A stretch of DNA of 54,779 nucleotides from Acidimicrobiales bacterium (GTDB taxonomy: Bacteria; Actinomycetota; Acidimicrobiia; Acidimicrobiales; SHLQ01), in contig JBPCTR010000304.1 in assembly GCA_051011575.1 (NCBI GenBank), positions 1-54,779 of the forward strand, given 5' to 3'. The first letter of the stretch is position 1; every line of letters begins with the position of its first letter. Below the pieces are notes generated by a model, which worked only from the letters and a program-made list of their open reading frames with translations, was not told where the DNA came from and searched no databases. The position numbers were made by a program, and so were the translations under genes. Below, in pieces: positions 1,138 to 41,325 of the stretch.

Positions 1138-1201
1138 AGAAATGTCAACCTATTTTCGACCGATAGTTCCAAATTTCGATGTTTCGTGTTACGGTCGAGG
1201 T

Positions 1202-1849
1202 ATGGGAACGGCCGCAAACACCGTCGAATCAACTGCGTCGGTCGCCACCTCGACGCGTGGTCGACCCCGAGAATTCGACGACGCCGCTGTTCTCGAGTCG
1301 CTCACCGACCTTTTCTGGGCCAAGGGATTCGAGGCGACCTCCATGGCCGACATCGTCGAGGCAACCGGCCTCAACAAGTCGAGTCTCTACAACGCGTTCG
1401 GGTCAAAGGAAGCCATGTTCGGCCTGGCGGTGAATCACTACGTCGACAACCGCGCGCAGATGCTCACCGACTTTCTCGAGCACGGTGAACAAGGCCTCGA
1501 CGACGTCATGATGATGTTCGACGTGATGTGGCGCGAGGTCGAGTCCGGCGACCAGCGGGGCTGTCTTGCTGTGAACACGTCTACCGAGCTCGGCCCGACC
1601 GACGAGCGAGCCGTGGAAATCAGCACTCGATACCGAGAGACACTGCGTGGTTCGTTTCGGGCCGCATTCGGGCGAGCTGCCGACCGCGGCGAAATCGACC
1701 CAACGCAGATCGACGCGTACGCGAACATGATCACCTCGATGGTGTTCGGCATGGCCGTCGTCGTACGAGGCGGTGCCCCGAAACACGAGATCAAAGCGCA
1801 TCTCGACGCCGCCCGCAGCGTCGTCGACGGGTGGCGGGTCGCAGCCTGA
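1202..1849 (+). CDS. TetR/AcrR family transcriptional regulator
   Basis: C-terminal 215 aa of ORF 650..1849, starting from the ATG at 1202. N-terminal HTH: GRPREFDDAAVLESLTDLFWAKGFEATSMADIVEATGLNKSSLYNAFGSKEAMF. It is divergent from the MFS efflux gene. Confidence 0.9.
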   Translation: MGTAANTVESTASVATSTRGRPREFDDAAVLESLTDLFWAKGFEATSMADIVEATGLNKSSLYNAFGSKEAMFGLAVNHYVDNRAQMLTDFLEHGEQGLDDVMMMFDVMWREVESGDQRGCLAVNTSTELGPTDERAVEISTRYRETLRGSFRAAFGRAADRGEIDPTQIDAYANMITSMVFGMAVVVRGGAPKHEIKAHLDAARSVVDGWRVAA

Positions 1850-1919
1850 CCCCCAGTCGCCGCTGGAACGCTCGCTAGCATCGCCGGATGGATGTCGAAG
1901 AGCAGAGGTTCATGTTCCG

Positions 1920-2501
1920 ATGAGTGGGCACGACGACGAGCGCGCCTGGATCGAGATTGTTCCCGATGAGGAATGGGCCACGACCGCGGGCCTCGACGAA
2001 AAATACAACGACGTGGTCGACCGCACGTTCGGCCGGGTCGACAACATCATGGCGATCCATTCTCTGAATCCGGCAGGGCTCGCCGCCCACAATGCGCTGT
2101 ATCGCTCTGCCATGACCGGAACGGCGACCCTTCGAAAGGTTGAACGCGAGCTGGTGGCATTCGTGGTGTCACTCGAGAACCACTGTCACTATTGAATCGT
2201 CCACCACGGGCGCGGTCTGCGCCGGCTTCTGAAGGACGACGAGCTCTTCCAGGCGATCGAGACCGACTGGCGAGCCGCTCCGATCTCCGCAAAACGAGCT
2301 GCGATGCTCCGCTATGCCCACAAACTCACCCACTCTCCAGGCGAAATGACACGCGCCGACGTGAACTCACTACGAGAGGCCGGGTACAGCGATCGAGACG
2401 TGCTCGACATCACCGAGGTGATCGGGTACTACGCGTATGTCAATCGAATCGCTGATGCGTTGGGCGTGCGAACCGAGAGCTGGATTCCTGATGACGACTG
2501 A
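1920..2501 (+). CDS. AhpD/carboxymuconolactone-decarboxylase-like peroxidase-related protein with an in-frame TGA (2193-2195): candidate selenocysteine, alternatively a pseudogene
   Basis: ORFs 1773..2195 and 2304..2501 are in the same frame. Read through the TGA, the sequence is ...ERELVAFVVSLENHCHY[TGA]IVHHGRGLRRLLKDDELFQAIETDWRAAPISAKRAAMLRYAHKLTHSPGEM.... That is a complete ~194-aa CMD/AhpD fold with the TGA exactly where the second Cys of the CxxC motif belongs. A hairpin follows the TGA. Confidence 0.6.
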
Positions 2502-3243
2502 CTTCGACGGACGTGTGGTGGTGATCACCGGCGCGGCATCGGGCATGGGTCGGGCCACCGCGATCGAGTTCGCACGCCGTGGTGCCATGGTCGGATTGAT
2601 CGATCGAAACGCTGACGGGCTCGAGGACATCGCCACCGACATCGGCGGCAGCGCTCACGAGGGCGACGTGACCGATAGCGCGTTCTGTGCGGCCGCAGTC
2701 GATGCGCTGGCCGGCCAGCACGGTCGAGTGGACGTTCTCGTCAACGCCGCCGGCGTTATTCACCGAGCCGGTGCACTCGGTACGACCGACGACGACTGGA
2801 GGCGGGTCATGTCGGTGAACGTCGACGGGATCTTCTTCATGTGTCGAGCCGCCATCCCGCACATGATTCGCAGCGACGGCGGCGCGATCGTGAACTTCGG
2901 ATCGATCTCGGGCACGGTCGGTTCCGCGGGCGGCCTGGCCTACTGCACCTCGAAGGGTGCTGTTCACCAGCTCACGCGGGCGATGGCGATGGACCATGTC
3001 GAGCAGGGCATCCGCGTGAATGCGGTCGCCCCCGGCGAGGTGAACACCCCCATGTTGCGCTCCGAACGCGACGAACCGATGACCGCCGACGACCTCCAGG
3101 CGCTCGCCGACGCGACGATTCCGATGAAGCGACTCGCCGAGCCCGAGGAGATCGCGCGGGTCGTGGCCTTTCTCGCGTCGGACGATGCGAGCTACATGAC
3201 GGGCGAGATCGTGCACGTCGATGCCGGGTACACGGCTCGCTGA
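2491..3243 (+). CDS. SDR family oxidoreductase (short-chain dehydrogenase)
   Basis: Motifs: TGAASGMG Rossmann motif, NAAG, and the catalytic S...YCTSK tetrad region. The ATG at 2491 overlaps the upstream stop by 11 nt. Confidence 0.9.
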   Translation: MTTDFDGRVVVITGAASGMGRATAIEFARRGAMVGLIDRNADGLEDIATDIGGSAHEGDVTDSAFCAAAVDALAGQHGRVDVLVNAAGVIHRAGALGTTDDDWRRVMSVNVDGIFFMCRAAIPHMIRSDGGAIVNFGSISGTVGSAGGLAYCTSKGAVHQLTRAMAMDHVEQGIRVNAVAPGEVNTPMLRSERDEPMTADDLQALADATIPMKRLAEPEEIARVVAFLASDDASYMTGEIVHVDAGYTAR

Positions 3244-4202: not shown

Positions 4203-5030
4203 ATGAAGATCGAGAACAGTTTCACCGTCGATGCCCCGATCGATGAAGCGTGGGAGCTCCTCACCAACATTCCCGAGATCACACCATGCCTTCCCGGTGC
4301 CAAGCTCACCGACGAGAGCGAGGGCGTGTACTCGGGTGGGGTGAAGGTGAAGGTCGGCCCTGTCACCGCCGAGTACAAGGGTTCGGCTGAGTTCGTGGAG
4401 AAGGACGGCGACGCCCACAAGGCCGTCATCAAGGGCAAGGGCCGCGACACCCGTGGCGCCGGCAACGCGCAGGCGCTCATCTCGGCGCAGATGGAAGCCG
4501 TGGGCGAGCAGACCCGAGTCGACATTGTGACCGATCTGAAGGTCAGCGGGAAGGTTGCGCAGTTTGGTCGTGGCGTCATGCAGGACGTGTCCGAGAAGTT
4601 GCTCGGTCAGTTCGCCGAGTGCCTCGAGGCCAAGATCGGCGAACCGGCTGCGGTCGACGCCATCGCAGCTGCGGGTGCCGCGGCCGAGGAGCCCGCGATC
4701 CCGAACTCGACGACCACACCAACCGCAGATGCTGCAGCTGAATCCGCCCCGTCAGGCGCTGAAGTCGCCGATGACGACTCGATGTTCGACAAGGTCACGG
4801 ATGCGGTGAGCGACACCGCCGGCGCCGTCGCCGACCAGGCATCGGCAATGGGTGGCGCTGCCGGCGCCAGCGTGAGCGATCTCGCCGACTCGATGCTCGG
4901 CAGGGACGATGACGACGATGCACTCGATCTGCTCGAGGTTGCGGGTGGAGCGGTGTTCAAACGCTTCCTGCCAGTACTGATCCTGCTCGTCATTCTTCTG
5001 GTGGTCGTGATCTGGGTTCTCGCATCGTGA
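4203..5030 (+). CDS. SRPBCC/CoxG-family protein with an acidic Ala-rich linker and a C-terminal TM anchor
   Basis: The N-terminal ~145 aa (MKIENSFTVDAPIDEAWELLTNIPEITPCLPGAKL...KVSGKVAQFGRGVMQDVSEKLLGQFAECLE) look CoxG-like. This is followed by low-complexity A/D/S sequence, and the protein ends in FLPVLILLVILLVVVIWVLAS. Confidence 0.8.
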   Translation: MKIENSFTVDAPIDEAWELLTNIPEITPCLPGAKLTDESEGVYSGGVKVKVGPVTAEYKGSAEFVEKDGDAHKAVIKGKGRDTRGAGNAQALISAQMEAVGEQTRVDIVTDLKVSGKVAQFGRGVMQDVSEKLLGQFAECLEAKIGEPAAVDAIAAAGAAAEEPAIPNSTTTPTADAAAESAPSGAEVADDDSMFDKVTDAVSDTAGAVADQASAMGGAAGASVSDLADSMLGRDDDDDALDLLEVAGGAVFKRFLPVLILLVILLVVVIWVLAS

Positions 5031-5160
5031 CCCGACCGGATTTCTGACCGCTCGCCGCTGTCGATCAGGCGGTCGGCGTCGTCTTGCTGGAATGCGCATG
5101 GAAGGATGTTCGGGCTTCGATGTCCGTAGTCACGTGACGACCGGTCGGGAGGTGGGGGAA

Positions 5161-7167
5161 GTGTTGCCGTCGAGAGGGGTTCAATCGGGCCTTCGGCATG
5201 CCGTGCTGATCGCCCCGACCATTGCCGTCGCCATCGGCGTCGAGTCGGCGCGCCGAGGCGATTGGACCTTCCCGATCCCGTTTCTGTTGCTCTACGCCGC
5301 GTCGTTGCTGGGTGCCGGGCTCGGCGGTCGAGTGGTCGGCGTGATCACCGGCGTCATAGCGGCGGGCTTCGTGTTGTACGCCAGCACGGTGCCCTTCGGA
5401 CCCACCACGCTCACGGGCGGGTCGGTTCAGGTGCTCTTCGGAATCAGCCTGTACGTGGGTACCGCGGGCCTGCTCGGCACGATTCGCACGGAGCGCGATC
5501 GACTCGTCTTTGCCCAGCGACAACACGAGGAAGACCTCGAACGCCTCGTCGCAGAACGGTCGGCGCAACTGTCGGACTCCGTGAGCTCACTCCGAGCTGA
5601 GGTGGAGAGTCATCGCCGGACAGGCCGAGACCTCTTGATGGCTCAGCAGATCGTGGGGTCCTCACGCGAATTGGTCGCTGTTGTTGACAGTACGCAGCGA
5701 TTGGAGTTCGTAAATCCGCAATTCGCGAGCTACTTCGAGTTGCCCGCAGACCAGCTCGTGGGGATGCGGCTTGGCGACCTCGACGGTGCGGACGAGCTGC
5801 GGGCGGTGGCGGAATCAGGCCCATCGGAAACGCAGGATCGGGGGGAAGATGGGCCGATTGTCACGATCAAGGTACCGCGGGGTCTTCGCACCCTCGAAGT
5901 GGAGGTGATACCGCTCGTCGATGACACCGGCGTACTGGTGGCCCTCGTTCTCGACGGACGAGATGTGACCGAGCGGATCGAGGCGCAGCTCGCACGCCAA
6001 GCGGCCGATGATCAACTTCAGACAGGTCTGAAACTGCAGGCCCTTGGCGGGTTGGCCGGCGGCGTCGCGCACGAGTTCAACAACCTTCTCACCGCCATCC
6101 TCGGCTACTCCGAGCAAGCTCGCTCGCGGATCGCCAGCCGCGAGGACTCCGCTTCGATCATGCGACAACTGGACGTGGTCATCAGTTCGGGCGAACGAGC
6201 CCGGGACATCATTTCGCAGATGCTCGCCTTCAGCCGCACGGGGCGATCGGGTTCGGCTCGGCCTCTCGACGTGTCGGCGGAGGTCCGCGAGGTCATGGAG
6301 CTGACCGAGCCGGTCCTTCCGGCCACTATTCAGCTCGAGGTCGATCTCCAGACCGACCTTTCTCCTGTTGTCGCGGACCCGATTCAATTCCAACAGGCGG
6401 TGATGAACCTGGTCATCAATGCTCGGGACGCCATCGAATCCGTCGGACAAATTCGTGTTCGATCTCGGCAAACCCTGATTCATGACGAGCGCTGCTCGTC
6501 GTGTGCAGCGCCCATCGAGGGCAATTTCGTCGAGCTGGTCGTCGAAGACAGCGGCCCGGGGCTTGACCAGGCGGTCGTCGAGAAGGCGTTCGAACCGTTC
6601 TTTTCGACGAAGGACATGGGAGAGGGAACCGGGATGGGTCTGTCGATCGTTCATGGGGTCACCCACTCCCATGACGGGCACGTGCAGGTGCGCGTGGGTG
6701 GGCTGGGCGGCGCTGGTGTTCGGCTGCTTCTGCCGGTAGCGCTGAACAAAATCATCGAGCCCGCCGACCGAAGCACCGAGGATCGAGCCGTTCGAGACGA
6801 GCGTTCGGTTCGGGCCACGATCGTGGTCGTCGACGATGATGTGGCGGTCGCAGAGCTCCTCGCGTCCTATGTGCGAGACCACGACCACCAGACTCTTGTG
6901 TTCACGGATCCGGTCGAGGCCGACCGATGGATGGAGCAGAACCATGCTGGATTCGACCTCTTGCTGACCGACCAGATGATGCCCGGACTCACCGGCGTCG
7001 ACCTCGCTGCGCGCGTTCGCGAGCGCCGGCCGGCTCTTCCGGTCATCGTATGCAGTGCCACGGCGGTCGATCTCGACGACAGGGCGCAAACGTATGGCTA
7101 CCTCGCCAAGCCCACCTCGTCGGATGCGTTGATCTCCGAGGTGAATGCGCAGTTGCTCGACGAGTGA
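5161..7167 (+). CDS. Hybrid sensor histidine kinase (membrane N-terminal region, coiled coil, PAS, HisKA, HATPase_c, receiver)
   Basis: H-box GGVAHEFNNLLTAILGYSE, N/G boxes (NLVINARDA, DSGPGL, GTGMGLS), and a C-terminal REC domain (VVVDDD...LLLTDQMMPGLTG...VIVCSA). The start is uncertain: the ORF opens at 5092, and I prefer the GTG at 5161 behind GGGAGGTGGGGG. Confidence 0.85.
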   Translation: MLPSRGVQSGLRHAVLIAPTIAVAIGVESARRGDWTFPIPFLLLYAASLLGAGLGGRVVGVITGVIAAGFVLYASTVPFGPTTLTGGSVQVLFGISLYVGTAGLLGTIRTERDRLVFAQRQHEEDLERLVAERSAQLSDSVSSLRAEVESHRRTGRDLLMAQQIVGSSRELVAVVDSTQRLEFVNPQFASYFELPADQLVGMRLGDLDGADELRAVAESGPSETQDRGEDGPIVTIKVPRGLRTLEVEVIPLVDDTGVLVALVLDGRDVTERIEAQLARQAADDQLQTGLKLQALGGLAGGVAHEFNNLLTAILGYSEQARSRIASREDSASIMRQLDVVISSGERARDIISQMLAFSRTGRSGSARPLDVSAEVREVMELTEPVLPATIQLEVDLQTDLSPVVADPIQFQQAVMNLVINARDAIESVGQIRVRSRQTLIHDERCSSCAAPIEGNFVELVVEDSGPGLDQAVVEKAFEPFFSTKDMGEGTGMGLSIVHGVTHSHDGHVQVRVGGLGGAGVRLLLPVALNKIIEPADRSTEDRAVRDERSVRATIVVVDDDVAVAELLASYVRDHDHQTLVFTDPVEADRWMEQNHAGFDLLLTDQMMPGLTGVDLAARVRERRPALPVIVCSATAVDLDDRAQTYGYLAKPTSSDALISEVNAQLLDE

Positions 7168-40935: not shown

Positions 40936-41325
40936 GTGCACGACATGACTCGTGCCGACACGGAAAGAGAAATAAAGGACACGCTCGGGCTGGTTCCCAG
41001 CTTCTTCGACGGCATCCCAACCGATGTCATCGAAGCGGAGTGGGAGCTGTTCAAGCGGTTCGAGTTCGGCGACACTCACATCCCGACGAAGTACAAACAG
41101 CTGATGGGTGTGGCGCTCCACTCGTACACACACTGCAGTTACTGCACGCTGTTCCACACCGAAGCCGCACGGCTGAACGGTGCAACGGATGCGGAGATCC
41201 AGGAGGCTGCGCACTTTGCGAAGCACTCTGCCGGATGGAGTACCTACATGAACGGGACGAGGCAGAGCTTCGACACGTTTGCGAAGGAACTCCACGAGGT
41301 CGAGGCGTACCTGTCGTCGAACTGA
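40936..41325 (+). CDS. Carboxymuconolactone decarboxylase / AhpD-like family protein (Cys form, HCSYC)
   Basis: CMD motif YKQLMGVALHSYTHCSYCTLFHTEAA. Start is the GTG at 40936 or the ATG at 40945. Confidence 0.85.
   Translation: MHDMTRADTEREIKDTLGLVPSFFDGIPTDVIEAEWELFKRFEFGDTHIPTKYKQLMGVALHSYTHCSYCTLFHTEAARLNGATDAEIQEAAHFAKHSAGWSTYMNGTRQSFDTFAKELHEVEAYLSSN

Follow-up and report, generated by a model that had tools for sequence, protein, structure and literature searches.

A probable selenoprotein of the AhpD-like (TIGR01926) family in an Acidimicrobiales-type genome

AhpD-like proteins are among the established selenoprotein families of bacteria. They were described in the Sargasso Sea survey of 2005, in which 27 sequences with a CXXU motif were assigned to COG2128 (Zhang, Fomenko & Gladyshev; PMC1088965). 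In the GOS survey of 2008, the family "AhpD-like 1" comprised 299 sequences and was the fourth most abundant prokaryotic selenoprotein family (PMC2398784). A 2026 review lists an "AhpD-like protein, TIGR01926, CxxU" (PMC13188914), and AhpD-like is a browsable family in BSepDB (PMC13326102). According to the 2005 survey, the SECIS element of bacteria is a stem-loop that follows the UGA directly and carries a G in its small apical loop (PMC1088965).

In AhpD of Mycobacterium tuberculosis, Cys133 is the exposed second Cys and attacks Cys61 of AhpC (PMC6626918). Residues of PA0269 have been equated to E118, C130, H132, C133 and H137 of this enzyme, which are its proton-relay and redox residues (PMC3141380). 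In Deinococcus radiodurans, loss of DR1765 leads to H2O2 sensitivity in a manner dependent on the CxxC motif (PMC8945050).

Here we analyse a stretch of 54,779 nucleotides from an Acidimicrobiales bacterium (contig JBPCTR010000304.1), referred to as the window, in which an AhpD-like gene is interrupted by an in-frame TGA. A sequence-only reading of this DNA had proposed the gene as a candidate selenoprotein and had noted that Sec-containing AhpD-like proteins were already known, which the literature bears out (PMC1088965, PMC2398784, PMC13188914). The proposal is supported by the conservation of the TGA, by selection on the codons downstream of it, by a SECIS-like hairpin, by the existence of Cys-form relatives, and by a selD gene in a related metagenome-assembled genome (MAG). 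On these comparisons, the UGA at 2193-2195 very probably encodes selenocysteine.

Reading frame, family and active site

Positions 1920-2501 of the forward strand form 194 codons in one frame with a single internal stop, which falls between VAFVVSLENHCHY and IVHHGRGLRRLL in the translation, in the local context NHCHY-TGA-IVHH. A mechanical list of open reading frames divides this region into 1773..2195 and 2304..2501, and translation confirmed the earlier statement that the two share one frame interrupted by the TGA. The accompanying claim of one protein of about 194 residues on read-through was right as to the single product, with a family match that spans the stop, but the length is 193 residues including Sec. 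Likewise, the second ORF, said to restart at 2304, does lie in the same frame, but 2304 is merely the first ATG after the TGA, and no restart codon is conserved in the orthologues. Crude scans of the window with a GC3 filter and a redox-motif filter gave no credible second candidate for an in-frame-TGA selenoprotein besides 2193. The features discussed below are collected in Table 1.

Table 1. Positions of the AhpD-like gene, its proposed recoding signals and related features in the window
Feature	Position	Strand	Remarks
Complete AhpD-like (TIGR01926) selenoprotein CDS, as proposed	1920..2501	+	193 residues including Sec92
In-frame UGA, proposed Sec codon	2193..2195	+	Residue 92; second position of CxxC/CxxU motif
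Terminator of the gene, TGA	2499-2501	+	Overlaps start of SDR gene
Active-site segment	2148..2207	+	E77 2148-2150, C89 2184-2186, Y91, U92 2193-2195, H96 2205-2207
Proposed bacterial SECIS apical hairpin	2209..2223	+	GGCGC 2209-2213, loop GGUCU 2214-2218, GCGCC 2219-2223
Extended lower stem, in MFE fold of window only	2197..2239	+	2197-2202 pairs with 2234-2239
SDR gene	2491..3243	+	adh_short_C2, 227 bits; ATG 2491 overlaps 3' end of selenoprotein gene
TetR-family regulator	1199..1849	+	TetR_N, 49.6 bits; upstream; start codon uncertain
Distant CMD-family paralogue	40945..41325	+	CMD, 41.6 bits; Cys-Cys motif HCSYC

Family searches were run on the 193-residue product with Cys substituted for the internal stop. 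This product matches the NCBIfam model TIGR01926, "peroxidase-related enzyme", with 135.1 bits (cutoff 81.8), and the match covers residues 32-185, that is, both sides of the TGA; Pfam CMD is matched as well. The solved homologues 2pfx (E = 2e-32), 3c1l, 2oyo and 6k40/DR1765 align over at least 150 residues, with E values from 2e-32 to 2e-25. The TGA column corresponds to the second Cys of CxxC in 2pfx (NKCFYC), 3c1l (NHCYYC) and 2oyo (NRCLYC). In BLASTP, the HCSYC motif of the CMD paralogue in the window was aligned to HCHY-TGA (shown as HCHYC). The observation that the TGA occupies the redox-active position at which the paralogue has Cys thus holds, and the PDB homologues align Cys there too.

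The mycobacterial-type AhpD model TIGR00777 gave 21 bits against a cutoff of 191.95, and the protein is therefore not an AhpD orthologue. Two models of related AhpD-superfamily selenoproteins that carry C-x-Y-U were rejected as different families, namely NF041238, the AhpD_rel_CFYUT (seleno)protein (48.9 bits, cutoff 175), and NF053654, the YciW-related (seleno)proteins (18.2 bits, cutoff 310).

The active site has the spacing E-x11-C-x-x-U-x3-H. Its residues E77, C89, Y91, U92 and H96 correspond, ungapped and with a constant offset of 41, to E36, C48, Y50, C51 and H55 of PA0269 (2ijc), and these columns are invariant in the orthologue alignment. By way of PA0269, the catalytic constellation Glu118/Cys130/Cys133/His137 has its counterparts in E77/C89/U92/H96. 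Because it is Cys133 that attacks AhpC in the mycobacterial enzyme, Sec92 would stand at the attacking and C89 at the resolving position, the arrangement expected for a CxxU oxidoreductase cycling via a selenenylsulfide. By homology, 1920-2501 would encode a single AhpD-like (TIGR01926/COG2128) thiol-selenol oxidoreductase of 193 residues, in which Sec92 attacks the oxidised partner, C89 resolves the intermediate as a selenenylsulfide, and E77 together with H96 forms a proton relay.

Conservation of the TGA and selection across orthologues

A scan of species-representative genomes gave 583 relatives, and the best 80 were taken; all 80 come from Acidimicrobiia/Acidimicrobiales MAGs, at 60-75% identity. 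Together with the window and two further contigs that were retrieved individually, these loci provide 84 gene copies, since one locus holds a tandem pair; 80 species-representative MAGs of Acidimicrobiia account for 82 of the copies. The codon at the Sec column is TGA in every one (84/84). A second scan, seeded with a divergent subgroup at about 48% identity to the window protein, added 80 metagenomic loci, again with TGA throughout (80/80). Among the 164 orthologous copies recovered, therefore, TGA is found in 164, and TAA, TAG or a sense codon in none. Relatives with TGC or TGT at this column do exist (L083-L085). An alignment of homologues at the TGA column, which had been proposed as a check, thus finds Cys in the PDB homologues and in these three relatives, and TGA in all the orthologues. 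With none of the best 80 of 583 relatives carrying Cys, the Sec form appears to be fixed across the Acidimicrobiales representatives.

It is extremely improbable that a TGC or TGT was miscalled as TGA by a sequencing or assembly error; no feature of this locus points to one, and an identical TGA is present in 163 other independent assemblies, which come from many projects and sequencing platforms.

The gene might instead be a pseudogene, an AhpD-like gene disabled by a nonsense mutation and reduced to two decaying halves. Standard gene callers do break or shorten it at the TGA, and database entries end in ...CHY or start with HH[GR]RGL. However, the same TGA occurs in all 164 orthologues, from many species, which agrees with the earlier argument that a chance nonsense mutation at this codon is unlikely. 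Downstream of the TGA the frame stays open for about 100 codons in 84/84 copies, and its divergence is dominated by third positions, as it is upstream: the mean pairwise divergence at the three codon positions is 0.25/0.22/0.52 downstream compared with 0.24/0.17/0.52 upstream. The matching values indicate that the same purifying selection acts on both halves in this frame. Independent disabling mutations in close relatives, either frameshifts or stops, had been named as grounds for abandoning the selenoprotein reading, and none were seen. Together with the full-length family match that spans the stop, these results make decay of the gene very improbable, and they favour a UGA that is read as Sec.

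Another explanation is a split AhpD-like protein, made as two polypeptides by termination at 2195 and re-initiation downstream. GTG or ATG directly follows the TGA in 21/84 orthologues, and the window has its ATG at 2304. On the other hand, the codon after the TGA is variable (ATC in the window; GTC, ATT, CTC, ACG and others in the orthologues), and neither a start codon nor a ribosome-binding site is conserved there across the 84 orthologues. A start at 2304 would remove the invariant H96 and the HHGRGLRRL segment, and a break inside the CxxC would separate the two redox residues from each other. We therefore regard two separate polypeptides as highly unlikely compared with one continuous selenoprotein.

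Public databases contain many mis-called versions of the gene. The protein search returned three kinds of entries: full-length proteins with W at the Sec column, N-terminal parts that end in ...CHY, and C-terminal parts that start with [MV]-x-HH[GR]RGL. Mis-called forms include P0001-P0004, P0007-P0010, P0017-P0026 and P0011/12/14/16, as well as the loci L089-L091. Some continue in frame from unrelated sequence upstream, as in P0023 (an AMP-binding fragment) and P0024 (a PF00155/PF01053 fragment), and P0021 is an in-frame fusion with an unannotated N-terminal extension. On a 122-kb contig (L001:1-17300), the orthologue lies amid transposase genes (rve, DDE_Tnp_1_4, DDE_3, ISL3), is without its customary N-terminus and has an AMP-binding fragment joined to it in frame; the locus thus looks rearranged. 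The chromosome of Candidatus Poriferisodalis (L068) carries two Sec AhpD-like copies, at 7121 and 11123, about 4 kb apart, both with the TGA and the same hairpin.

The hairpin after the UGA and selenocysteine machinery

The hairpin proposed as a SECIS element has, in the window, a loop that begins at nt +22 from the U of the UGA, and its position and GGUCU loop fit the published description of bacterial SECIS elements (PMC1088965). In the clade of the window, the stretch CGG CGC GGT CTG CGC CG after the TGA is almost invariant, third positions included. A single top codon is used in 95% of copies at codons +5 and +6 (both Arg), in 99% at +7 (Gly) and +8 (Leu), and in 86% at +9 (Arg). By comparison, at other conserved Arg, Gly and Leu columns of the same genes the top codon accounts for 31-83% of copies and 4-6 codons are seen. 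GGT makes up 24% of Gly codons overall but 99% of those at +7, and third-position divergence is 0.10 in codons +5..+9 versus 0.52 elsewhere.

The hairpin occurs in 164/164 copies; counted from the U of the UGA, its loop begins at nt 20-24. It varies by subgroup both in its stem (CGGCGC/GCGCCG, ACGGAG/CUCCGU, CGGAGC/GCUCCG) and in its loop (GGUCU, GGG, CGGGU, CGGGCU). Over 68 in-register sequences of the divergent subgroup, pairing in the helix reaches 94.3%, compared with 27-52% when the register is slid. Three of its six helix pairs show compensatory changes, from C-G to U-A five times and from G-C to C-G three times, and the covariation score of 0.197 (shuffled mean 0.134) was reached by 0/500 shuffles. 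Pairing is 94.9% in the clade of the window, where the helix is nearly invariant, and no significant covariation was found there (RNAalifold keeps 4 pairs), because the hairpin hardly changes. Synonymous-site conservation therefore provides the support within this clade, and the divergent subgroup was used for covariation.

Folding energy does not distinguish the element: the 68 nt after the UGA fold no better than dinucleotide shuffles (z = 0), and in a sequence of 65% GC energy alone is no evidence for a hairpin. No Rfam covariance model matched positions 1800-2700 of the window at E <= 10; SECIS elements of bacteria reportedly have little coverage in that database (bioRxiv 10.64898/2026.04.03.716425). 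The extended lower stem of the minimum-free-energy fold, which is 64% paired across orthologues, was rejected and is probably not part of the SECIS element.

The element resembles the SECIS of fdhF in Escherichia coli (Sec140). The E. coli gene reads TGA CAC GGC CCA TCG GTT GCA GGT CTG CAC, and the window reads TGA ATC GTC CAC CAC GGG CGC GGT CTG CGC. In both, the UGA and six codons are followed by GGU CUG at +7/+8, the apical loop is closed by G-C and contains GGUC(U), and the loop encodes Gly-Leu. The stems are unrelated, being GGCGC/GCGCC in the window and a different stem in fdhF, and so are the host proteins. The fdhF stem carries a bulged U. An identical loop at identical spacing would predict that the element could be decoded by SelB of E. 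coli.

The GGUCU(G) loop, which lies within codons +6..+8 (window 2211-2219), forces Gly-Leu at +7/+8 after Sec in both FdhF and the AhpD-like family, whereas the homologous structures with Cys show Ala-Val or Ala-Leu at these positions (HGAAVRQL). In the segment that encodes the hairpin, the Sec forms read H-H-G/R-R-G-L-R and the Cys structures H-G-A-A-[VL]-R, so that the RNA element appears to shape the protein sequence. The RRGLRR peptide is kept, together with most of the hairpin stem, in two Cys-form relatives with TGC (L083:448 and L084:141), so the nucleotide conservation is partly protein-driven. In both of these (n=2) the loop Gly is encoded by GGG instead of GGT, a suggestive difference; their stem could be the "fossil" remainder of a SECIS from before a switch from Sec to Cys. 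The Tyr codon that precedes the UGA (window 2190-2192) is TAT in 68% of copies, compared with 25% of Tyr codons in these genes, perhaps because the Sec codon favours a particular 5' context.

As for the machinery, tblastn with E. coli SelA, SelB and SelD found no selA, selB or selD in the 54.8-kb window, and in the window plus 85 loci it found no selA or selB and a single selD match, in L055. ARAGORN found no tRNA-Sec in the window or in the window plus the 85 loci, and no tRNA gene of any kind in the window. In L055, an Acidimicrobiaceae MAG, the selD homologue lies at 4781-5714, with the AhpD-like orthologue about 4.5 kb downstream of it. The selD gene has its own in-frame TGA (4820-4822) at the column of the active-site Cys17 (SHGAG-TGA-GCK) and is, judged by this codon, a Sec-type SelD, a form that is well known. 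The tblastn matches in this gene are spread over three frames, and this points to frameshift errors, perhaps from long-read assembly, or to decay. A 2026 preprint reports selA, selB, selC and selD, with a Sec-type SelD, for all complete genomes of Actinomarinales, another order of Acidimicrobiia (bioRxiv 10.64898/2026.04.03.716425).

These observations also bear on the idea that the UGA is reassigned or read through as Trp, Gly or Cys, either under genetic codes 4 or 25 or by near-cognate suppression. W does stand at the column in the public proteins P0001-P0004 and P0007-P0010. However, the DNA behind three W proteins has TGA, and W is thus an artefact of the translation table of the source, a matter of gene calling and not of biology. 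In 70/84 copies, the window among them, this very gene also ends with TGA as its ordinary stop codon. Moreover, the column holds the catalytic Cys of the homologues, a site-specific hairpin follows the codon, and a related MAG has a Sec-type selD. Insertion of a standard amino acid is, in our assessment, scarcely credible. The conserved TGA, the intact downstream region, the lack of a restart codon and the use of TGA as terminator together leave practically no room for a pseudogene, a sequencing error, a split gene or a genome-wide change in the meaning of UGA.

With the UGA taken as a Sec codon, the anatomy of the sequence suggests how decoding would proceed. With a ribosome at the UGA, SelB-GTP-Sec-tRNA(Sec) would attach to the hairpin 14-31 nt further on by contacting its apical loop, which contains G; this complex would deliver Sec and prevent termination by the release factor. 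Lying within the coding sequence, the hairpin would at the same time fix the codons for R-R/G-R-G-L-R.

Gene neighbourhood and comparison with known systems

The TetR gene upstream of the selenoprotein gene is a possible local regulator. Downstream follow the overlapping SDR gene, Abhydrolase_3, CoxG and a hybrid histidine kinase. The 11-nt overlap with the SDR gene noted earlier was confirmed (ATG at 2491, stop TGA at 2499-2501), and the two genes are probably co-transcribed. Among the relatives, just the closest four (L003, L004, L005 and L007) show this overlap; three of them also have the hydrolase and CoxG genes in common with the window, and the TetR gene is not conserved beside the orthologues. 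The neighbours are therefore weak evidence for function.

The role of the protein is most likely antioxidant or peroxide-linked, as genetics has shown for DR1765, its closest characterised Cys homologue. A more far-reaching picture is that the Sec AhpD-like protein is a fixed, lineage-wide core enzyme of Acidimicrobiales and one main reason why the class keeps its Sec machinery, and that in the sub-lineage of the window it was recruited to a TetR-controlled operon, with the overlapping SDR and an alpha/beta hydrolase, to detoxify or reduce a specific organic (hydro)peroxide or similar compound. We consider this picture speculative and rather unlikely as a whole.

In practical terms, the region should be annotated as one selenoprotein of 193 residues, not as two ORFs or a pseudogene. 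It offers a well-documented example in which Acidimicrobiales-type actinobacteria would employ Sec as the attacking residue of the CxxC pair in a thiol oxidoreductase linked to peroxide. It opens no new question, as family, motif and SECIS were all known by 2005. We did not find it stated in the AhpD-like selenoprotein literature consulted that the Sec form occurs in all 80 best Acidimicrobiia relatives, or that the SECIS has an fdhF-like loop and spacing.

Compared with known systems, the window protein has the same catalytic spacing as M. tuberculosis AhpD (TIGR00777; Cys130-x-x-Cys133), E-x11-C-x-x-C-x3-H, with Sec92 in the place of Cys133; no ahpC adjoins the gene. With the Cys structures of TIGR01926 type (2pfx, 3c1l Mlr4105, 2oyo and 6k40 DR1765) it has the motif N-x-C-x-Y-C-x3-H in common, and these differ by Cys in place of Sec. 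Like the published AhpD-like family, it scores above the cutoff of the same NCBIfam model, would carry Sec in place of the second Cys of the motif (CxxU), and has, just 3' of the UGA, a SECIS-like hairpin whose apical loop contains G; its Cys homologues are widespread. Judged by model, motif and hairpin, the window gene is a member of this already known AhpD-like CxxU family (TIGR01926/COG2128). Its host is an Acidimicrobiales-type genome, and nothing essential separates the window copy from the published family.
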